This document shows, piece after piece, positions 11,305 through 63,273 of a stretch of 64,000 bases of DNA; the first letter of the stretch is position 1, and each line of letters begins with the position of its first letter. The notes below the pieces were generated by a model. The model was given only the letters and a program-made list of their open reading frames with translations, did no database searches and was not told the origin of the DNA. Origin of the DNA: Candidatus Omnitrophota bacterium. GTDB lineage: Bacteria; Omnitrophota; Gorgyraeia; Zapsychrales; Zapsychraceae. Position numbers and translations under genes: made by a program. The stretch covers positions 11,087-75,086 of the forward strand of contig JAHFGL010000005.1 of NCBI GenBank assembly GCA_023247445.1, given 5' to 3'.

Positions 11305-11414
11305 CATCAATTTTCCTTATTACAAACAGTTATAATTGATACTGCACTCACTTCTTCTAATAAGATCAAATTGATGCAGTACTCACTACCTTAAAAAGTT
11401 AAGGAGAGTGAGTG
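11305..11414. mobile_element. ~110-nt 'gtcaat' element, copy 1 (divergent): ...attgatactgcactcac...ttctaataag...attgatgcagtactcac + terminal hairpin cactcac/gtgagtg
   Basis: Shares half-sites, spacer and hairpin architecture with copies at 25942-26050 and 39368-39482. It contributes the last 6 codons of the helicase gene. Confidence 0.5.
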
Positions 11415-17622: not shown

Positions 17623-20600
17623 ATGCAAAAGATTATTATTTGGCTCAAAATTAATTGGTTAAAAATCCTTCTAATCGTCCTCTTTACCCTACTTCTCGCC
17701 AGCCTTATTGCCTATTGTACCTATATCTACCAAAGCTACCTTGGCCTTGAAAATTTTACAAAAAAACAAGTCGCGGGTACGCAGGCGATGTACATGCCGA
17801 TGATGGTGTTTTCTCAACTTCTTACGCTTCCTTTTGTCTTTGCGATGTATTACTACATCATGACGGGCGGCGGCGCTGGAACGTTTAAAAAACCCGAAGT
17901 TTCTAAAATGAATGTCAAATGGAGCGACATTATTGGCATGGAAGAAGCCAAAAAAGATGCGCTAGAAGTTATCCGATTTCTTAAAGATCACTCGATGCAA
18001 AAGGCTATTGGTGGAAATGTTATCAAGGGAACCATTCTTCTTGGACCTCCAGGTTGCGGGAAAACATATTTGGCCAAGGCGATCGCCACCGAATGTGGAC
18101 TTCCCATGATCTCAGCGACAGGAAGTGATTTTGTGGCGATGTATATGGGTCAAGGGGCCGCAAGAATGAAATCCCTTTTTAAGCAGGCCCGCTCTGAAGC
18201 TAAAATCCATGGCGGATGTATTATTTTTATCGATGAAATCGATGCCTTTGCCCGTCCCCGCCAGCAAGAAATGGGCGGTGGGGCAACAACATCCCACAAT
18301 GCCACCATCAATCAATTTCTAACTGAATTTGATGGGTTACGCAAAAAAGAAAATAACATTATTGTTCTGGCCGCCTCCAATGTTGAAGAAGATGAACTCG
18401 ACCCAGCGATTATGCGATCCGGTCGCTTTGATCGAAAAATTTATGTTGAGAAACCAAACGCTCGAGAACGTGAAGCCTTAATCAAATTTTATCTTTCGAA
18501 AGTTGAAGCAGATAAAAATCTTGATATTGGATTGTTTGCCGAAAAGGCGCAATGGTTCTCCCCTTCCGATATCTATAACATGATTCGAGAAGCCGGAGTC
18601 ATTGCCATTAGAAATAATCATAAAGCTATTGCCAACGAAGATTTAAATGCTGGTCTACAGCGTGTCATATCCTCAATTGAAAAAACTGGTGGAGCAAAAA
18701 TCCTAAGCCAGAAGGTCAATATTAAGTGGGATCAATTAATTGGCATGGAAGAAACAAAAAAGGATGCGTGGGAAATTGTAGAACTTTTGCGTGATCGCCA
18801 TCGCTTAAAAGTGATCGGCGGCCAAATTATTAAAGGTGTCATCATGATCGGCCCGCCGGGATGCGGCAAAACTTATTTGGCTAAGGCCATGGCGACCGAA
18901 TCAGGTTTTCCCTTTATGACCGCCACAGGTGGAGAATTCACAGGCAAATATTGGGGTTCTGGCGTTGAAAGGATTAAAGAATTATTTAAAGAAGCCCGTA
19001 AACTGGCCAAGACCGAAGGCGGATGCATCATCTTTATCGATGAGATCGACGCGCTCATTCGTCCGCGCGAGCAAAAAGGAGTTGAACCCGGGGGTGATCG
19101 TCATTCCAACGCTACCGTCAATCAGTTTCTATCAGAAATGGACGGTCTAAAAAATATGGATGAAGGAAATGTCGTTGTCTTGGCGGCAACTAACGTCGAT
19201 GAAGGAAATCTTGATGAAGCGGTGCTGCGCTCAGGACGATTTGATCGCAAGATTTATTTCAGCAAACCTTCTTCAAAAGACAGAGAAAAATTACTCCAAT
19301 ATTATCTTTCTAAAATAAAAACAGATGAAACCGTAAATATTCCCCACCTTGCGGATAAAGCCAAATGGTTTTCAGCCGCTGATATTAATAATATGGTCAG
19401 AGAGTCCGGCATTTTAGCTTTACGAGAAAAACGAGAAATTATCTCAATGGACGATTTAGAAAAAGCGCTGGATCGTGTCATGATATCGATTGAACACACG
19501 GGTGAAAATAAAATCCTTGGCAACAAAGTCAATGTTAAGTGGGATGAAGTCATTGGCATGAACGATGCCAAAGAAGAAGCCTGGGAAATTGTTAAATTAC
19601 TTAAAGACCGAAATATGGTCAAAGCCGTCGGAGGAAAAATCGTTAAAGGTGTCATTATGTTTGGTCCTCCCGGCTGCGGGAAAACATATTTGGCTAAGGC
19701 CATGGCGACAGAAGCTGGATTTCCATTTATGACTGCCCAGGGAAGCGATCTTGTTGGTGTTTGGGTGGGTGAAGGCGCCAGAAAGATGAAAGATATTTTC
19801 AAAGAAGCTCGAGCGATGGCCCGCGCCGAAGGCGGATGTATCATCTTCTTTGATGAAATAGATTCTTTCGCAACCCCGCGTGGAAAAGATATGGGCGGCG
19901 GCGGAATGACAAGTCACAACGCCGCGATCAATCAATTCTTGACAGAGCTCGATGGGTTAAGACAGCAGGAAAATAATATTTTTGTTTTAGCGGCCACAAA
20001 TGTGAAAGAAAAAGATCTCGACCCTGCTATCTTAAGGGCCGGAAGAATTGAAAGAAAAATTTATATCAAACGCCCCAACCTCCAAGAGAGAACAGATTTG
20101 CTCAATTTTTATTTGGCTAAAGTAAAAATTAATGCGGGTGTCGAGGCAAAAGCCTGGGCACGGATTGCGGTTGGATTTACACCGTCTGAAATTGATAATT
20201 TAATCCGTGAGGCAGGACTTTTGGCTTTACGCAACAATAGGGATACTATCAACCAAACCGATATGACGGAAGCTTATGATCGAATTACAATCGGGTCATT
20301 ATCCAACGCACGTTATTCGGAAAAAGAAAAAACCATGACGGCCTATCATGAAGCCGGGCACGCCATCATGACCTATCTCATCCATCCTACCGACGAAGTC
20401 ATCAAAGCAACCATTAGGCCTCGCAAGGATTACTTGGGATACATTTATTATCGTCAGGCGGACGATTTTGAACCAGGAGCTTCCAATATAGAAGAAGAAC
20501 TCGCTAAAATTAAAATTTCTATAGCTGGTTATGCTGCTGAAAAAATTGTTTATGGAACAGTGACCACAGGTGTTTGGGGCGATTTCCAACATATCATGCA

Positions 20601-26091: not shown

Positions 26092-26164
26092 AGCTGGCGA
26101 CAGGAATTGAACCTGCGACCCGCGCATTACGAATGCGCTGCTCTACCAACTGAGCTACGCCAGC
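26092..26164 (-). tRNA. tRNA-Thr (CGU)
   Basis: Reverse complement is GCTGGCGTAGCTCAGTTGGTAGAGCAGCGCATTCGTAATGCGCGGGTCGCAGGTTCAATTCCTGTCGCCAGC. Confidence 0.9.
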
Positions 26165-26406
26165 AAGAATTTTCAAAAAAAACAAATCTTATATTGAGGA
26201 AAAATTCTTGCCGTCCTGACTTCCATTAAAAAATTTAGAAAAGCCAGGGCGGCGCAATAAAAAAGGCCTCTTACTGGCTCATGTTATTACTTCTTGTCTT
26301 TTTAATAACATCATCAGAACCGTTAAGAAACCTGAGAAAAACATTAAAAAAAGGTGGTGCCGCATTGCTGCTACTAAATCAATCTTTTCTTTAAAAAAGC
26401 GTGTCC

Positions 26407-26664: not shown

Positions 26665-26771
26665 CCGCGTTTGGCTTCGTAGAGCATTCTACTACGCCCT
26701 CATCTTTCAAAGACATAATAGAATGCATTCTACGAAGCCCAAAGCGAAAGCATTTGGGCGTAGTAGAATGC
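26665..26771. repeat. 16-bp perfect inverted repeat (gcattctactacgccc / gggcgtagtagaatgc) enclosing the palindrome tagaatgcattcta and direct repeats; 3' arm abuts tRNA-Phe 3' end
   Basis: Read directly from the sequence. Confidence 0.7.
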
Positions 26772-26841
26772 CGAGACCCAGAATTGAACTGGGGACGCAA
26801 GGATTTTCAGTCCTTCGCTCTACCAACTGAGCTATCTCGGC
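26769..26841 (-). tRNA. tRNA-Phe (GAA)
   Basis: Reverse complement is GCCGAGATAGCTCAGTTGGTAGAGCGAAGGACTGAAAATCCTTGCGTCCCCAGTTCAATTCTGGGTCTCGGCA. Confidence 0.9.
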
Positions 26842-26930
26842 GAGAATTTTCCACTAAAAACCATTAAGAAAAAATTCTTGCAGTCCTGTCTTCTATTCAA
26901 AACTTCTAGAGAAGACAGGGCGGCAAATGT
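26842..26930 (-). promoter_or_regulatory. tRNA-Phe upstream module, paralogous to the tRNA-Thr upstream region (26165-26260)
   Basis: Shared ...cagggcggc...gaaaag.cag..cttc.att.aaaa...gcaagaatttttc...gaaaattct immediately 5' of both tRNAs. Confidence 0.5.
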
Positions 26931-28448: not shown

Positions 28449-28457
28449 AATTTAAGG

Positions 28458-28535
28458 GGCTATCAGTCTTCAGCTTTCAGCTATCAGTAGCTGAGCAGCT
28501 TTCTGATAACTGACGACTGAGAGCTGACAGCTGTT
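28458..28535. repeat. AGCT-rich palindromic repeat (copy 1)
   Basis: ctatcag...cagctatcagtagctgagcagct...ctgagagctgacagctg, related to 52746-52826. Confidence 0.6.
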
Positions 28536-29511: not shown

Positions 29512-30237
29512 CTAATTTAATATTTGTTTTATCGTTGAGATTAATAATTTGGGATTAACTGGTTTGGTTAAATGACTAACAGCCCCGACCTCTATCTCAG
29601 CCTGAATATCATCTTGGGAATCTTTCGATGTCAGAAAAACAACAGGAATATTCTTTGTTGAAGGATCATTCTTAAGGCGTTTACAAACTTCTCGTCCTTT
29701 AATCCCTGGCAAAATTACATCTAAAAGAATCAAATCGGGTTTTTGTGCCTTAGCAATCTGTAAACCATATTCTCCGCTTGGCGCGCTTAAAACAGCATAT
29801 CCACTGGTCATCAAAATAGGTCGAATCGTTTTAATATGAATTTCGTCATCATCAACAATCAAAATGCTTCGCCACTCTTTTGTCGTTTTGTCATGAAATT
29901 GTATTTTGACTTTTTCCTGACTGAAATACAAAAAAACCACAATGTTCATAAAAACAAAATAAATGGGAATTATATGAAGTTTCGGGATATACGGTGTAAT
30001 CAAACTAAAAAACATAATAATATTTAAAATGACAATTAAGCGTCTACCCCAGTCTTTGAGAGAAATGACGGCTAGAGAACAGATAAATAAAACGGCAGAA
30101 AGTACAATGTAGACAAAAGTACGTAGGTGATCATCTCCGGGAACGCGAATCGCGCCTAAGAAAACAAGCAGAGAAACCCCGTAAAGAATGGTTAAGGCGA
30201 ATCCAATAATTTTTAAATCAGGAAGAATTCTTTTCAT
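29512..30237 (-). CDS. Membrane-anchored response-regulator receiver (REC) protein
   Basis: 3 TM helices then ILIVDDDE...LLDVILPGIKG...TKP receiver motifs. Confidence 0.8.
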   Translation of the reverse strand: MKRILPDLKIIGFALTILYGVSLLVFLGAIRVPGDDHLRTFVYIVLSAVLFICSLAVISLKDWGRRLIVILNIIMFFSLITPYIPKLHIIPIYFVFMNIVVFLYFSQEKVKIQFHDKTTKEWRSILIVDDDEIHIKTIRPILMTSGYAVLSAPSGEYGLQIAKAQKPDLILLDVILPGIKGREVCKRLKNDPSTKNIPVVFLTSKDSQDDIQAEIEVGAVSHLTKPVNPKLLISTIKQILN

Positions 30238-31735
30238 GTCGTCTCGTTTTTAAAACCGCCAGTAGTATACATCCAAAACAAAAATATGTAAAAATATCTC
30301 CAAATTTTGTGTAAAAGGTTTTTTCAGAATTAAGCTGAGCATGGGCAACAGCATAATTAATGACAAATGTTTTCTTATGATGAGTATCTTCCACATATTT
30401 AGTAATATGCCCAAAGCGGTCAATAAAACAGCTGACGCCTGTGTTGGCCGCACGAATAAGATCCCGTCTGTTCTCAACCGCTCGAAAGACAGAGCTTTGC
30501 AGATGCATAAATGGCTCTTTACTATCTTTAAACCACGCATCGTTTGTAATGTTAATCAACAATTGTGCTCCTTGATTAACGAATTTTCGGGCGAGTGCAG
30601 GAAGTGTATCTTCAAAACAAATTAATGTAGAAAACCTTAGTGGTGAGCTTGTCGAACCATTAGCTTCTCTTACTGAGGGAAATGAAAAGATTGTATGCTT
30701 ATGGCCTGCCGTAAAATCGGCGATGGGAACAATAAACTGTAAAGCGGGAAATGTATGACGAAAAGGAATAAACTCTCCAAAAGGAACCAATCGAATCTTG
30801 TCATAACGATCAACTACCTCTCCTCTATTTGATAAAAGAACTGCCGAATTATAATAAGCATCATCTTCCATAAGCACTGAACCAAAAAGAAGAGGAATCT
30901 TGACCCCTCTTACAAAATCCTGTAATTGCGCAAATAATCCTTCGTCCTCTCCAATAATATCGGGAAAAGATGTCTCGGGCCAAACAATAAGATCGGGTTT
31001 CTCTTGCGCGGCTAATTCTGTGAGCGTTTGGTGATCATTTAAGATTTTTGAGTACAAAGATTCAACCCATTTCATTTCTTGCGGGATGCTTGCCTGAACA
31101 ACAGCCACAGACATTTGCGGTAAATTTTCTTTCGTCTGATTTAAACGAAAAAATCCGTAAGAAAGGACTATCCCCAACACAAGAAGAACAACAATCGCTG
31201 ATTGATATATTTCTTTTTTAAGAAACCGCCCATTAAAAAATTCTTTTAGCAAAACATTGACCATAACAATTAGAAACGATAAACCATAAATACCGGTAAT
31301 ATCGACGATTTGAATAAGCGGCAATGCCTTCGATTGCGATTCCCCAAGTGCCGCCCAACCAAATCCGCTAAATAAATGCGCTCGTGTATATTCTAAAGCA
31401 ACCCACAAACTGGGAATGACAATAATCTTAAAAAAAATATTTTGTTTGGAAAAATACTGATATCCGAGGGCAAAACAACCAAAGTAGATAGCACAATAGA
31501 GGCTTAAGAGAATTGTGCCAACAACCGTCACATTCGTTAACCAAAAAAATGATATGAAGAAAAAAATGAATCCACTCAAAAATCCAAAACTACCCGCTTG
31601 CTTATAATTTTGTTTATCAAAAAGACAAAATAAAGGAACAAACCCTATCCAAGCTAAAATCCAAATATTTGTTTGGGGAAAAGTTAAGGCGAGTAGGACC
31701 GCTGAAAGTAACGACAGAAAATAATTTAAGATCAT
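30218..31735 (-). CDS. lnt: Apolipoprotein N-acyltransferase
   Basis: Polytopic N-terminus plus CN-hydrolase domain (LIVWPETSF). Confidence 0.9.
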   Translation of the reverse strand: MILNYFLSLLSAVLLALTFPQTNIWILAWIGFVPLFCLFDKQNYKQAGSFGFLSGFIFFFISFFWLTNVTVVGTILLSLYCAIYFGCFALGYQYFSKQNIFFKIIVIPSLWVALEYTRAHLFSGFGWAALGESQSKALPLIQIVDITGIYGLSFLIVMVNVLLKEFFNGRFLKKEIYQSAIVVLLVLGIVLSYGFFRLNQTKENLPQMSVAVVQASIPQEMKWVESLYSKILNDHQTLTELAAQEKPDLIVWPETSFPDIIGEDEGLFAQLQDFVRGVKIPLLFGSVLMEDDAYYNSAVLLSNRGEVVDRYDKIRLVPFGEFIPFRHTFPALQFIVPIADFTAGHKHTIFSFPSVREANGSTSSPLRFSTLICFEDTLPALARKFVNQGAQLLINITNDAWFKDSKEPFMHLQSSVFRAVENRRDLIRAANTGVSCFIDRFGHITKYVEDTHHKKTFVINYAVAHAQLNSEKTFYTKFGDIFTYFCFGCILLAVLKTRRHEKNSS

Positions 31736-31761
31736 ACGATCAACCCCGAACCCGTTGATTT

Positions 31762-31912
31762 ATCCCAAATTTTGCACGCACACATAATTTATGCACAAAA
31801 ATGTGCGTTCAAAATTATGGGATTACCCCGCCAAAGTTGTCGATATCTCCAACGGCATCAACTTTGTCGGCCCTTTGGGCGGATTTTGCTATTGCAAAAT
31901 CCGGGTTTATTA
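31762..31912. ncRNA. ~150-nt structured element, copy A (unknown family)
   Basis: 95% identical to 61232-61382. Helices present are acgcaca/tgtgcgt, a long ccgccaaagttg..catcaactttgtcgg hairpin, gccc-ttt-gggc, and a perfect 10-bp cggattttgc-tatt-gcaaaatccg hairpin followed by ggtttatt. Confidence 0.5.
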
Positions 31913-31942
31913 GAAGACTACTGGCCTTTTGATTGTAGATCT

Positions 31943-34930
31943 TCATTGACCACAGCATTTCTTATATTTCTTTCCACTCCCGCATGGGCATGGATCATTG
32001 CGGCCAACTTTAGGACCTTCATTGCGCATCGGTGCTGAGCTGGACACGGGAACAGATTGAGGAGCTGACGGAGGAACTTGTCCTTGGGCTTGAGCTTGCT
32101 GCATTAAAGCAGCATTGGATAAACCAGAAATTTCATCATGGACTAATTTTTGTGGCAATGAACTAAAGACGCCTTTAATTTTACTTTCTTTTTCAGCAGG
32201 CTGAATCTTAAATATCATTTCCGCCACTTCTTGATTGATCGATGAATACATCACCTGAAACATCGCAAAGGCTTCTTTCTTATACTCAATCAAAGGATCA
32301 CGTTGACCATAAGATCTAAGGCCAATTCCTTCTTTTAATTGATCCATCGCATACAAATGATCTTTCCATTTTGAGTCAATGGTGTGAAGCATAAACATCC
32401 GTTCCAGATGTCGCAAATGGATTGGATCAATATCTTTTTCTTTTTGATTATATATTTCATTAACTTCTTTAATAATAAAATCAGACGCCTCTTGTTGCCC
32501 CATGCTTTTTAATTTTTCTTTATGCGACGTAACATCATAATTAAATGTCGTCTTTAAATAAACGGCCAATCCTTCAACATCCGGCTCAACGCCTTCTTTC
32601 TCTGAAACCAAATATTGGGCAACCGCGGCATATAATGTATCGCCCACCGCCTCAACAATAAGATCTTTCACATTATCTGTTTCTAAAATTGATCGACGCA
32701 AACTATAAATAACCTCACGCTGGAGATTCATGACGTTATCGTATTCCAAAAGATGTTTACGAATCTCGAAGTTATGTGTCTCAACACGTTTCTGCGCTGT
32801 TTCAAGCGCCTTACTTAACCACGGATGTTCCAGCGCCTGACCTTCGTCCATTCCCAAACGCTCCATAAGTCCCATGATTCGATCCGAAGCAAAGAGTCGC
32901 ATTAAATCATCTTCCAAAGAAACATAAAAGCGCGAAGAACCTGGATCACCTTGACGTCCCTGACGACCGCGCAGCTGATTATCGATCCGTCTCGATTCAT
33001 GACGTTCCGTGCCCAAGACATGTAACCCACCAGCAGCGACAACCTTGTCATGCTCTTCTTTAACTTGCTGACGGAATTGTTCAATAAACTTCTGGACCAA
33101 TTGAGCCTGCGCATCTTTATCTTGTGAATCTTTTGATTTTTCTTCAGCCAATTTCTTTGCCAAATATTCTGCATTTCCTCCCAAAACAATATCCGTTCCA
33201 CGTCCGGCCATATTGGTGGCGATTGTGACCGCCCTATACCGGCCCGCTTGCGCGATGATGTGCGCTTCCATCTCGTGATACTTAGCATTTAATACTTGAT
33301 GCGCAATCCCTTTCTCTTTAAGCATCCGAGATAAAAGTTCCGACTTCTCAATAGAAATTGTACCAACCAAGGCCGGTTGTCCACGTTTATGACAATCTTC
33401 AATTTCCGTTACAACAGCCGTAAACTTTTCTTTTAACGATTTATAAATACAATCGGCATGATTAACACGTTGAACTTTTCTATTTGGTGGAATAACAATA
33501 CAGTCGAGATTATAGATTTGTTTAAATTCGTTAGCTTCTGTTTCGGCGGTACCCGTCATCCCCGCTAATTTTTCATACAAACGGAAATAATTTTGGAAGG
33601 TAATCGTCGCTAGAGTCTGATTCTCACGCTCGATCTTAATTCCTTCTTTAGCCTCTACCGCTTGATGCAGCCCATCCGACCAACGTCGGCCCGGCATCAA
33701 ACGCCCGGTAAATTCATCGACAATAATAACCTCGCCGTCATTGACGACATAATCAACATCAATCTTAAAAAATTCTTTTGCTTTTATAGCTTGCAGAATA
33801 TGATGGCGATATTCAATTGTTTCCATGTCATGCATATTCGGTATGCCAAAAAGCTGCGCCGCTTTCGTTTCACCTTCTTCGGTCAGCGAAATCGATCGAT
33901 TCTTTTCATCCGCTAGATAATCATATCCTTTGGCTAAATCAATCTCTTTGTGTTTTGCCTCAATTTGATCATTTTCCGTAATCCGTCGACCTTTAAGTTG
34001 TTTACAAATCACATTGGCCTTGTAATACGTGTCGGTCGACTCTTCTGCCGGGCCAGAAATAATAAGCGGGGTGCGAGCTTCGTCAATTAAAATACTATCA
34101 ACTTCGTCAACAATCGCAAAATGGTGAGCACGCTGCACCATGTCTTCCTTATAGTTGACCATGTTGCTGCGCAAATAATCAAAACCAAATTCATTGTTAG
34201 TTCCATAGGTAATATCACATCCATAGGCCGCTTGACGCGAAGGAGGATCCATATCGTGTTGAATAACACCAACAGTTAATCCAAGCGATTCATAAATAGG
34301 ACCCATCCAATTGCGGTCACGATTAGCCAAATAATCATTAACCGTGACCACATGAACGCCATCGCCGGTTAACGCATTTAGATACGCCGGCAATGTGGCC
34401 ACAAGTGTCTTTCCTTCCCCCGTCGTCATCTCCGCGATATTGCCGCCATGCAAAACCATTCCACCAATCATCTGCACATCAAAATGCCGCATGTTTAAAA
34501 CACGCTTGCCCATCTCTCGAACAATGGCAAAGGCCTCCGGCAAAATTTTATTTAAAAAATCTCCTTTAGCCTTCTTTAAAATTTCTTTAGCCTTCTCTAC
34601 TTGTAGATTAATTTCTTCTTTACCTTCTCCCTCGGGAGCTTTTCTATAAAGCTCTAAAATACGATCATATTCCTGTCTCTCTTTTTCAACAGCCTTTTGA
34701 TATTGAGCCTTAAATTGTTCTGTTTTAGCGCGCAACTGATCGCTAGTTAATTGGCTGATTTGAGATTCAAGACTGTTAATCTTAGAAACAGTTGCTGACA
34801 TTTTTCTAAGTAGCGCAATGGAAGGTAAAAGCAAATCTGGTGGGACGTGAATATCCACCTTAGGATTTAATTGATCAATAAATTTTTGTGCACCGCTGAC
34901 AATGGTATTTCGTATTAAAAAATCAAACAT
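31943..34930 (-). CDS. secA: Preprotein translocase ATPase SecA
   Basis: 995 aa, DEAD-like motor motifs, C-terminal zinc finger CPCGSGKKYKKCCG. Confidence 0.95.
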   Translation of the reverse strand: MFDFLIRNTIVSGAQKFIDQLNPKVDIHVPPDLLLPSIALLRKMSATVSKINSLESQISQLTSDQLRAKTEQFKAQYQKAVEKERQEYDRILELYRKAPEGEGKEEINLQVEKAKEILKKAKGDFLNKILPEAFAIVREMGKRVLNMRHFDVQMIGGMVLHGGNIAEMTTGEGKTLVATLPAYLNALTGDGVHVVTVNDYLANRDRNWMGPIYESLGLTVGVIQHDMDPPSRQAAYGCDITYGTNNEFGFDYLRSNMVNYKEDMVQRAHHFAIVDEVDSILIDEARTPLIISGPAEESTDTYYKANVICKQLKGRRITENDQIEAKHKEIDLAKGYDYLADEKNRSISLTEEGETKAAQLFGIPNMHDMETIEYRHHILQAIKAKEFFKIDVDYVVNDGEVIIVDEFTGRLMPGRRWSDGLHQAVEAKEGIKIERENQTLATITFQNYFRLYEKLAGMTGTAETEANEFKQIYNLDCIVIPPNRKVQRVNHADCIYKSLKEKFTAVVTEIEDCHKRGQPALVGTISIEKSELLSRMLKEKGIAHQVLNAKYHEMEAHIIAQAGRYRAVTIATNMAGRGTDIVLGGNAEYLAKKLAEEKSKDSQDKDAQAQLVQKFIEQFRQQVKEEHDKVVAAGGLHVLGTERHESRRIDNQLRGRQGRQGDPGSSRFYVSLEDDLMRLFASDRIMGLMERLGMDEGQALEHPWLSKALETAQKRVETHNFEIRKHLLEYDNVMNLQREVIYSLRRSILETDNVKDLIVEAVGDTLYAAVAQYLVSEKEGVEPDVEGLAVYLKTTFNYDVTSHKEKLKSMGQQEASDFIIKEVNEIYNQKEKDIDPIHLRHLERMFMLHTIDSKWKDHLYAMDQLKEGIGLRSYGQRDPLIEYKKEAFAMFQVMYSSINQEVAEMIFKIQPAEKESKIKGVFSSLPQKLVHDEISGLSNAALMQQAQAQGQVPPSAPQSVPVSSSAPMRNEGPKVGRNDPCPCGSGKKYKKCCGQ

Positions 34931-52745: not shown

Positions 52746-52826
52746 CAGCTACCAGCTATCAGCCTTCAGCTGCCAGCAGTCTTCAGCTGAAAGCTACTGA
52801 TAGCTGAGAGCTGAAGGCTGAAAGCT
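52746..52826. repeat. AGCT-rich palindromic repeat (copy 2) in the thiS-thiG intercistronic gap
   Basis: cagctatcagccttcagctgccagcagtcttcagctgaaagctactgatagctgagagctgaaggctgaaagct. Confidence 0.6.
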
Positions 52827-52830
52827 ATTT

Positions 52831-60979: not shown

Positions 60980-61231
60980 ATCTTCTCCTTAAAATATTAA
61001 TGACCCTGAGAGTCTCTTGTGTTTTGATTTTTACGTCGAGAATATTCATGCAAGGCAAAACATTGACATTTAATAATTTATAACTGTATAAAGTTACTAT
61101 GAATATAACAAAGGATTAATTTTTATACAAGAAGAAAACCTATTTTTTTGCTCTTAAATACAAATAAAAAATGGGACAAATGATTTGTCCCATGAGTAAA
61201 TTCACCAACATAGTAAATGCTTAAATTAATT

Positions 61232-61382
61232 ATCCCAAATTTTGCACGCACACATAATTTATGCACAAAAATGTGCGTTCAAAATTATGGGATTACCCCG
61301 CCAAAGTTGTTGATGTCTCTTACGGCATCAACTTTGTCGGCCCTTTGGGCGGATTTTGCTATTGCAAAATCCGGGATTATTC
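61232..61382. ncRNA. ~150-nt structured element, copy B
   Basis: 95% identical to 31762-31912. Central hairpin stem is perfect here (gttgatg/catcaac). Confidence 0.5.
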
Positions 61383-62057
61383 AAATCTGATCTCATCCAA
61401 ATAAAAAATACAGGATTCTTGATTAACATTTTCATTAGTTGTCCAAGCAAATCCTCCGCTAATATAGGAAAGGTCTTTCCCACGTAAATCGATCGTATAT
61501 TGTCGCCACTCAGAGGTTAAAATCACCGGACCAATAAGTGAGGTATCTGAATCCGGATAATTCCCAGAAATACCTCCTACGGTAAATTCTTCAATTTGCT
61601 CACCACCCTTATCTCCCCTGGCCCAAAAAGTTAATTTGGTTGCCCCTTTTAAGTTAAAACCACCCTTCTTTTGTCCCCAATTATTTGCCGGATTAAGCCA
61701 ATAAATACCCGCCCACTTTTGATCACGGCGTGAACAGTCAACATCATAATCAACGCGAATACATGTTTTGCCCGTATAACACTTTTCAACCCAAATATCA
61801 TTAAAGGCAATACATTTCCCATTAGGCATAAACCCCGATGGGACATAATGATTTTGCTTAGATTCTTTTTCCGAATAAACATAGAAAGGCGAAAAGGAAT
61901 TAAGATTAATGGAGGCCTTTTCAGAAGGAATATTACTCTGAGGAATTGTTGGTTCAACTTGCTCATTAGAAACAACGGAAGTCGCTTTAGCTGGAGCTCT
62001 CTGACATGAATAAAGGGGGAGTAAAACAAGAATCAACAAGATAGAAACGAATTGCAT
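61377..62057 (-). CDS. Lipoprotein with carbohydrate-binding-module-like domain
   Basis: Lipobox LYSC. Start set at MQFVSILL. Adjacent to glycoside hydrolase genes. Confidence 0.5.
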   Translation of the reverse strand: MQFVSILLILVLLPLYSCQRAPAKATSVVSNEQVEPTIPQSNIPSEKASINLNSFSPFYVYSEKESKQNHYVPSGFMPNGKCIAFNDIWVEKCYTGKTCIRVDYDVDCSRRDQKWAGIYWLNPANNWGQKKGGFNLKGATKLTFWARGDKGGEQIEEFTVGGISGNYPDSDTSLIGPVILTSEWRQYTIDLRGKDLSYISGGFAWTTNENVNQESCIFYLDEIRFE

Positions 62058-62199: not shown

Positions 62200-63060
62200 T
62201 TAAATATCTTCAAGTCCATCTAAAGCCTGTTGAGCGGCCTCTGAAGGTTTCCAAAACCATCCCTGAGGATCCCAGCATTGTGCATAAGAATATTCATCAA
62301 TTAATTTCTTATAAGCTTCTTTAGCTTCATTGGTCTGACCTGCTTTTTTATACGCCTCTCCCTCGATATATAGGGCGGTTCCTGTATCATTAAGAGCCCA
62401 ATAGCTAAAAATTTTATCTTTAGACTCCCAAGGATATTCTGTCAAAGATTTTTGCATATCTTTGCCTTTGTCAGAATAAAGTTCTAAAATTTTATTAACA
62501 TAGGTAACAACAGCATCTGTATTATTACTGGCTAAAGCTTTCCATGCCTGAGATGTCAGAAATGAAGAAGAATAATCACCAAAATCCAAATCAGAACCTG
62601 ATTCAAGCATGGCTAATTTCTCTTTAGCAGCATCCGCTGGTTTCCAAAACCAACCTTGAGGATCCCACGCTTGACCAAAAGAATAGTTATCAATGATCTT
62701 CTTATAAGCCGCACTGGCTTCATCATTCATCTTAGATTTGCGATACATCTCTCCCTGAATAAATAAACCTGTGGCCACATCATTTAATGCCCAATAGCTA
62801 AAAATTTCTTTATTTTCTCCCTTTGGATAATCGGTAAGACTGGCTTGCATTTTCTTAGCTTGTTCACCATAAAGCTCAATACATTTATTTGTATAAGCTA
62901 AGACGGCTTCCATATCATTATCTTGCATTGCCTTCCAAGCCTTTGTGATTAAAGTTTCCGAACGAAAGTCACCAAAATTATACGCGGCCATAACTCTCGT
63001 GGGAGAAACAATCATAAGGCTTGTCAATAAAATTGTTAATGTAAGAAATACTTTTTTCAT
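62200..63060 (-). CDS. Secreted protein with internal tandem duplication (two ~130-aa repeats)
   Basis: Repeats share ...AWKA...AV..Y.NK..ELY....K.MQ.SLT.YP....K.IFSYWALND.....I.GE.Y.K.....EA..AYKK.ID.YS..Q.WDPQGWFWKP..AA. Confidence 0.55.
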   Translation of the reverse strand: MKKVFLTLTILLTSLMIVSPTRVMAAYNFGDFRSETLITKAWKAMQDNDMEAVLAYTNKCIELYGEQAKKMQASLTDYPKGENKEIFSYWALNDVATGLFIQGEMYRKSKMNDEASAAYKKIIDNYSFGQAWDPQGWFWKPADAAKEKLAMLESGSDLDFGDYSSSFLTSQAWKALASNNTDAVVTYVNKILELYSDKGKDMQKSLTEYPWESKDKIFSYWALNDTGTALYIEGEAYKKAGQTNEAKEAYKKLIDEYSYAQCWDPQGWFWKPSEAAQQALDGLEDI

Positions 63061-63273
63061 AATAACTCCTCCGTTAGTCAATTATTTTTGTTCTATAAAG
63101 GTAAGTATACTCCACTTTCAAATTCTTTACCAATACCTGTTTCTCCTGCGGGATAATTTAAATAAATGATTAATATTAAAATATTTGATTTAAATTTTGG
63201 AACTGCTTATTCAAGGTAAAGGATAACATCTATTAATCTAAATTTCAATACGACAAACCCGTACAAACCCTCC

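Follow-up and report, generated by a model that had tools for sequence, protein, structure and literature searches.

A structured intergenic repeat in Candidatus Omnitrophota as a probable member of a modular MITE family

Introduction

An intergenic sequence of approximately 150 nt that folds strongly and occurs twice in the same genome raises the question whether it is a duplicated gene for a small RNA or a piece of mobile DNA. The sequence discussed here is found in the window, i.e., the whole 64-kb stretch of Candidatus Omnitrophota DNA that was analyzed, and the earlier note on this DNA considered both an sRNA gene and the ends of a mobile element. As discussed below, the data suggest that both segments are independent insertions of a miniature inverted-repeat transposable element (MITE), which belongs to a modular family with a wide distribution in Candidatus Omnitrophota (probability roughly 90%).

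The two copies and their neighbors

The repeat is 152 nt long and is present at positions 31760-31911 (copy A) and 61230-61381 (copy B), both on the + strand, as identified by repeat search, blastn, and nhmmer. The copies differ at five positions, and the measured identity is 96.7%, compared with the 95% given in the earlier note. As direct repeats, they are spaced 29,470 nt apart, and the similarity between them starts and ends abruptly in the pairwise alignment. No third copy was detected within the 64-kb window by blastn or nhmmer; the count of two documented copies in the source genome refers to these 64 kb of sequence. On the basis of the terminal inverted repeat (TIR) motif and the flanking direct repeats (see below), the element proper is 142 nt long and spans 31764-31905 in copy A and 61234-61375 in copy B (both + strand). 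Within these bounds, there are four mismatches, all in the apical part of hairpin H3. The fifth (T at 31906 vs A at 61376) is located outside the element, inside the target-site duplication, and is paralleled by a T/A difference at the left flank (31759 vs 61229).

Copy A occupies the gap that separates the secA stop (31943) from the lnt start (31735). The secA gene (31943-34930, - strand; Pfam SecA domains) is located upstream of copy A in the direction of transcription and lnt, which encodes apolipoprotein N-acyltransferase (30218-31735, - strand; Pfam LNT_N and CN_hydrolase), is located downstream. Protein homologs of lnt are found in Omnitrophota/Omnitrophica, the closest one being only 60% identical. 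In the window, secA and lnt are separated by a spacer of 207 nt, and 147 nt of this length are taken up by the element and one duplication. Copy B lies between two ORFs, one of 255 aa with a lipobox-like LYSC (in LLPLYSC) and one of 422 aa with coiled-coil character. In this interval, it is placed between the stop codon of the 255-aa ORF and a terminator-like hairpin with a T-run (61171-61193, - strand; terminator scan), which is found 36 nt beyond copy B. Hence, the intergenic setting between minus-strand genes described in the earlier note holds, with secA and lnt both confirmed by Pfam as - strand genes. The ORFs that cross the copies, 31772-32038 in A and 61217-61390 in B, use different frames, and the lengths of the family members (see below) differ by non-multiples of 3. 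The element is therefore non-coding, as had been concluded before.

Termini and hairpins

Copy A starts with CCCAAATTTTGCA (31764-31776, + strand; motif search) and ends with TGCAAAATCCGGG (31893-31905), which reads CCCGGATTTTGCA on the - strand. Together these termini constitute an imperfect inverted repeat that matches at 11 of 13 positions. When the 64 kb was searched with the TIR pattern CCCRRATTTTGCA, allowing at most one mismatch, four matches were obtained vs 0.89 expected; all of them correspond to the four element ends and they are in inverted orientation. The TIR consensus across the family is CCC-RR-ATTTTGCA-WT-WG.

In both RNA and DNA folds, the left TIR is paired with an internal inverted copy (...TCAAAATTATGGG), forming hairpin H1 (31764-31821, + strand). 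A short ATTA linker joins H1 to a conserved 80-nt 3' module (31825-31905, + strand), which consists of stem P2, hairpins H3, H4, and H5, and a terminal GGG. Covariance model R1 identifies this module with 72.2 bits (E = 1.1e-13) in copy A and with 76.6 bits in copy B (61295-61375, + strand). In copy A, H3 is located at about 31828-31870, followed by H4 (31871-31879), a small GCCC-NNN-GGGC hairpin, and by H5 (31880-31903), a 10-bp perfect hairpin, CGGATTTTGC-TATT-GCAAAATCCG, whose 3' arm is the right terminus. The description of the segment as highly structured is borne out by its RNA fold, with z = -5.8 on the + and -5.3 on the - strand relative to shuffled sequences. Folded as DNA, the 142-nt core has z-values of -5.8 to -7.5 on either strand.

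A strong fold (z about -5.8) is also what speaks for a duplicated gene for a trans-acting sRNA, which would be expressed from its own + strand promoter, with the 10-bp hairpin and its U-rich tail as the terminator. Moreover, the hairpin with the adjoining GGTTTATTAG in copy A passes the terminator scan, and the covariation in the 3' module (see below) counts in the same direction. The sRNA gene is nevertheless very unlikely. The 10-bp perfect hairpin reported earlier is real, but its "U-rich tail" is the AT-rich target-site duplication, which is not the same in both copies and, in copy B, is not recognized by the terminator scan. In relatives, the element ends with GGGTTAAA and similar sequences and most of these fail the scan as well. 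A + strand promoter-like site is absent in both copies. The Rfam search suggested in the earlier note was carried out with the window (gathering threshold), the element (E<=10), and 20 related loci, and it returned only tRNAs, 6S RNA, and chance miRNA-like matches, i.e., no family that corresponds to the element. With respect to the neighboring genes, the orientation of the elements is unbiased (opposite/opposite 8, same/same 6, divergent 6, and convergent 2). The near absence of G-U pairs, the variable target-site duplications, of which each window copy has its own, and the presence of an empty site likewise argue against an sRNA gene (see below).

Target-site duplications and an empty site

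Direct repeats of 5 nt flank both elements: TTTAT in the case of copy A (31759-31763 and 31906-31910) and ATTAT in the case of copy B (61229-61233 and 61376-61380). The TAA stop codon of the 255-aa ORF (61377-61379, - strand) is contained in the right duplication of copy B. For the statistics across the family, redundant loci were dropped, leaving 30 elements, and only the TIR motif was used to define the left end, which avoids circularity. The earlier note had named further copies flanked by target-site duplications as the sign of a plain MITE, and these were found: the flanking 5-mers are identical in 18 of the 30 elements, compared with a mean of 4.2 (maximum 11 in 5000) when the right-hand 5-mers were permuted among elements. 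With up to one mismatch allowed, the number rises to 27, and the outward control, which compares the adjacent 5 nt beyond, gave 0 matches. The 5-mers are direct, not inverted, repeats and they vary among the elements (TTAAA 7, ATTAT 5, TTTAT 4, TTAAT 3, and ATAAA 3), with WTWAW as consensus; often they contain TTAA, TTAT, or TAA. The mismatches are concentrated at position 1 and the length of the duplication is therefore perhaps 4-5 bp.

The filled site at locus L009 reads TTAAT-(112 nt)-TTAAT. Its reconstructed pre-insertion site aligns unbroken to L049 (1823-1984; 81% over 165 nt), where the junction carries one TCAAT only. L009 and L049 are thus a classical filled/empty pair, the one orthologous empty site found. 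Short tandem repeats of the GATTACACAGATTA type are found in the flanks of both (about 2250-2300 in L009 and about 1860-1905 in L049) and are conserved between them. In a syntenic relative with the gene order prfB-secA-lnt-response regulator-lipid A acyltransferase, 25 nt separate secA from lnt, and no element is detected in this spacer by the family model.

The duplications also bear on the suggestion that the repeats are the ends of a mobile element. The mobile part of this suggestion holds. As direct repeats 29,470 nt apart, the copies could in principle be the terminal repeats of a single 29.5-kb composite mobile element or genomic island; however, each copy is complete, with two inverted ends and its own perfect duplication, and hence they are not the ends of such a composite. 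In addition, the outer flanks do not match (TTTAT vs ATTAT), the interval houses core genes (secA, a prfB-like release factor, and tRNAs), and the prfB-secA-lnt synteny runs across copy A in a relative. The likelihood of a composite element is therefore practically negligible.

Another alternative is a single-stranded DNA element mobilized by an HUH (Y1) enzyme, either a PATE derived from IS200/IS605 or a REP/BIME-like element that depends on a RAYT. The resemblance lies in small intergenic palindromic repeats with hairpins near both ends, in the ATTTTGC motif common to these subterminal hairpins, and in the TTAT-like tetranucleotide that adjoins both ends in the window copies. Families mobilized by HUH enzymes leave no target-site duplication, and their insertion point is located 3' of a fixed tetra- or pentanucleotide. 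In contrast, the 5-mers discussed here co-vary between copies (TTAAA, TTAAT, ATTAT, TTTAT, and ATAAA) and the empty site has a single 5-mer. REP/BIME and PATEs also lack TIRs, while the Omnitrophota element has true TIRs in addition to its duplications. Mobilization of this kind is extremely unlikely.

A family of elements in Omnitrophota

Related elements were searched for with the 22-mer GGATTTTGCTATTGCAAAATCC from the H5 hairpin, which identified 60 further loci, 39 in metagenomes and 21 in species-representative genomes. The genome matches are mostly labeled Omnitrophota/Omnitrophica; some, from third-party assemblies, are labeled "uncultured Planctomycetales", which is a label only. Among the metagenome matches are several assemblies with "Hain" in the contig names, taken to be Hainich groundwater wells. 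In one MAG, there are seven exact GGATTTTGCTATTGCAAAATCC matches, several of them at contig ends, and locus L021 (13.9 kb) appears to carry about three elements, judging from its matches to the TIR motif. Conservation detectable by blastn is limited to element positions of about 104-152.

The anatomy recurs across the family: a left end CCC-RR-ATTTTGCA-WT-WG, H1, and the 3' module, with AT-rich 5-mers on either side. In relatives, the 3' module follows the pattern ACCCCGAC...GTCGG-CCC-NNN-GGG-C-H5-GGG. The smallest elements, of 53 nt (L037/L042), comprise hardly anything beyond their inverted-repeat ends, i.e., the left repeat and the 3' hairpin that bears the right repeat, and the largest size is 233 nt. 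In the longest ones (L055 and L062), as well as in L043, the family model recognizes two copies of the 80-nt module, one at each end and inverted relative to each other.

The subfamily-specific 22-mer ATCCCAAATTTTGCACGCACAC from the left end gave no match in 185,579 species-representative genomes, so that the subfamily or the source genome is absent from the species representatives. Viral contigs searched with GGATTTTGCNNNNGCAAAATCC yielded two loci, neither of which is matched by the family model, and blastn of the element against plasmids gave only chance matches of 22 nt. MITEs of Omnitrophica/Omnitrophota are not described in the literature searched and, within this literature, the family is apparently the first one documented in this uncultivated phylum.

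Several loci show departures from the common arrangement. L013 (2937-3072) and L036 (1701-1836), and also L001 and L029, are identical in the left flank and in the element and differ in the right flank, which points to recombination among the copies or to an assembly that is chimeric at the repeat. In three assemblies (L010, 1543-1567; L044, 6742-6769; and L061, 2629-2656), H5 with AGG-TTTAT is present alone at the same site, directly after the terminator-like hairpin of a gene; these may be solo ends or truncated elements. L015 has a MITE copy 6 nt from a 6S RNA gene (385-548 and 555-707; Rfam RF00013, 57.4 bits).

Models for transposition and the candidate mobilizer

Small non-coding size, TIRs, target-site duplications that differ from copy to copy, dispersed copies, and filled/empty sites are the features by which a MITE is recognized, and all are found in this family. 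We propose that an autonomous IS, as the candidate source, would provide in trans a transposase of the DDE type, which would bind the termini containing ATTTTGC. The enzyme would cut AT-rich target DNA with a stagger of 5 bp, typically in an intergenic spacer or at a TAA stop codon, and insert the element there, and subsequent gap repair would generate the target-site duplication. In this model, H1 and H3-H5 would be palindromes at the DNA level, with each terminus paired with its own internal inverted copy. Copy A would have entered the spacer on the upstream side of lnt, 23 nt from the start codon, and a stretch containing GGGG would have remained before the ATG. Copy B would have inserted in the TAA stop-codon region of the 255-aa gene, with the duplication keeping the stop codon. 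Neither insertion would have altered a coding sequence. Both elements are predicted to be co-transcribed in antisense, A as part of the secA-lnt spacer and B as part of the 3' UTR of the 255-aa lipoprotein gene.

The most likely mobilizer would be an IS1380-family (piggyBac-related) transposase, which we regard as a lead and not as a finding. This type of enzyme is suggested because of the CCC...GGG termini in combination with a TTAA-like duplication of 4-5 bp. IS1380-family elements have CC ends and generate 4-5-bp duplications; for ISEcp1, the duplication is 5 bp and AT-rich. The MITE ends (CCC/CCT), the 5-bp duplication, and the position 1 at which the match is weakest all fit ends of the IS1380 type. 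The ends of ISEcp1, taken from pCTX-M3 (L063), are CCTAGATTCTACGT and CCTAAATTCCACGT, and like the MITE termini, which include CCTAAATTTTGCAT and CCTAGAATTTGTCA, they start with CC; CCYARATT is common to the ISEcp1 ends and several MITE termini. Unlike ISEcp1 and other IS1380 elements, the MITE has no transposase gene at its ends in the fetched loci, and the terminus similarity covers about 8 nt only. The IS1380 transposases are prokaryotic relatives of piggyBac, whose canonical ends are CCC/GGG and which duplicates TTAA (PMC10140906). The TTAAA and TTAAT duplications that are common in the Omnitrophota MITE resemble this target, while the length of 5 bp differs from the strict 4-bp TTAA of piggyBac.

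Autonomous elements were looked for as TIR pairs 0.5-4 kb apart with a matching target-site duplication, and no TIR-flanked ORF was found in about 400 kb of fetched loci. The sole candidate pair, in L058, proved to be a reversed MITE. Likewise, the ISEcp1 transposase, used as a tblastn query for the window and all of the loci, had no match in this small search space of about 400 kb.

Comparison with known bacterial elements

Correia (Neisseria), RUP (Streptococcus pneumoniae), and ERIC (enterobacteria) are bacterial MITEs, and Correia and RUP duplicate TA. Like these, the Omnitrophota element is a non-coding, multi-copy sequence within 50-250 nt that has TIRs and short AT-rich target-site duplications; it also forms strong hairpins, is mostly intergenic, and would likewise often be co-transcribed with its neighbors. 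As a MITE, it is selfish DNA of a common type, though with unusually many conserved hairpins. However, the sequence is unrelated, the host belongs to an uncultivated phylum, and, in contrast to the TA of Correia and RUP, the ends are CCC...GGG and the duplication is a 5-bp WTWAW. Another difference lies in the pairing of each terminus, whose partner is its own inverted copy inside the element instead of the opposite terminus; as a result, the 3' module resembles a four-way junction. Tn3-derived TIMEs carry inverted repeats of about 38 bp that start with GGGG, read from the outside in, and a 5-bp AT-rich duplication. This origin was considered and rejected: the duplication fits, but, in the same reading direction, the termini of the Omnitrophota element start with CCC, and its TIR has a length of about 13-17 nt only.

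Conservation of the 3' module

Covariation was tested in an alignment of 16 sequences of the 3' module. Paired cells amount to 94.7%, compared with 85.5% in shuffles and 28-54% in slid controls. Changes on both sides are seen in 12 of the 26 pairs, and one of 413 cells is of the G-U type. Almost no G-U pairs together with equal folding of both strands indicate palindromes at the DNA level, which would be unusual for a selected RNA. We therefore read the hairpins as inverted duplications of the predicted transposase-binding termini, together with other palindromes, in a modular DNA element.

L047 (4041-4185) and L059 (5792-5936) are orthologous filled sites with the same ATTAT duplication and their elements are identical at 144 of 145 positions. 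In contrast, the flanks are 84% and 79% identical over 600 nt on each side, and identity is 83% over the 2.2-kb alignment. The loci are from two species-representative MAGs of one study, and the search itself fixed 22 of the 145 nt. Selection, gene conversion, or a hot spot that received repeated insertions could have produced this identity, as could short-read assembly collapse of the 145-nt repeat. Considered together, the compensatory changes and the L047/L059 identity hint at constraint, concerted evolution, or collapse of the repeat during assembly; they are unexpected for a neutrally decaying MITE.

One form of constraint would be that the 80-nt module (P2, H3, H4, and H5) is a functional nucleic-acid structure, either a fold required for mobilization or one retained by the host under selection. 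In the former case, it would be a cis-acting DNA or RNA fold needed by the transposase, possibly IS1380/piggyBac-like, of Omnitrophota. A functional module would explain why compensatory changes across subfamilies are of the Watson-Crick type only, why 144 of 145 positions are identical in spite of flanks at 79-84%, and why some relatives carry the whole module at both ends. At present, we consider such a function possible but unlikely.

A related possibility is that the MITE has been exapted and that its hairpins act on the host transcript as an RNase III/RNase E site, a 3' stabilizer, or an internal promoter. This is compatible with the MITE reading since it only adds a function. Both window copies appear to be inside transcription units (the secA-lnt spacer and the interval between stop codon and terminator), and both carry on the - strand a promoter-like hexamer pair (31843-31814 and 61313-61284) with TCGACA or TCAACA, an 18-nt spacer, and CATAAT, which reads toward the downstream gene, lnt in the case of copy A. 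The preservation of the structure by compensatory changes and the 99% identity of the element at one orthologous site (L047/L059) would also be consistent with a host function. However, promoter-like matches occur at chance level (1 vs 1.1-2.0 expected), the orientation is unbiased, the scarcity of G-U pairs favors constraint on DNA over RNA, and the 99% identity may be due to the assembly collapse mentioned above. Judged from these sequence features, exaptation is doubtful.

Implications for annotation and transposition

Recognizing the repeat as a MITE removes a false sRNA candidate. In Omnitrophota MAGs, the family accounts for contig breaks and for spurious small ORFs, which is of use in assembly and annotation. 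The TIR consensus and the WTWAW duplication constitute a marker that can be used in finding the cognate transposase. Should an IS1380-like enzyme prove to be the partner, the CCC...GGG/TTAA-like signature would connect transposition chemistry of the piggyBac type with a bacterial MITE. Why the structure of the multi-hairpin module is maintained is a modest question. Only this maintained module and the potential IS1380/piggyBac link go beyond the routine.

Other repeats in the window

A second type of small intergenic repeat is present at 28452-28530 and 52748-52830. It consists of runs of degenerate 7-8-mers (CTATCAG, CTTTCAG, TCTTCAG, GCTGAGA...) that form long imperfect palindromes, and one of the two is located just downstream of the lipid A acyltransferase gene. 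Three 60-nt segments (17911-17970, 18718-18777, and 19531-19590) are 70-72% identical and about 810 nt apart, and these probably represent three tandem paralogous genes. The segments 26092-26235 and 26769-26905 each contain a - strand tRNA gene, at 26092-26164 and 26769-26841, respectively, adjoined by a related 43-nt sequence (84% identical), and a third, weak copy is found at 11359-11401. Finally, within a TPR-containing ORF (62200-63081), the segments 62209-62414 and 62602-62807 are repeats spaced by 393 nt that are 73-74% identical.
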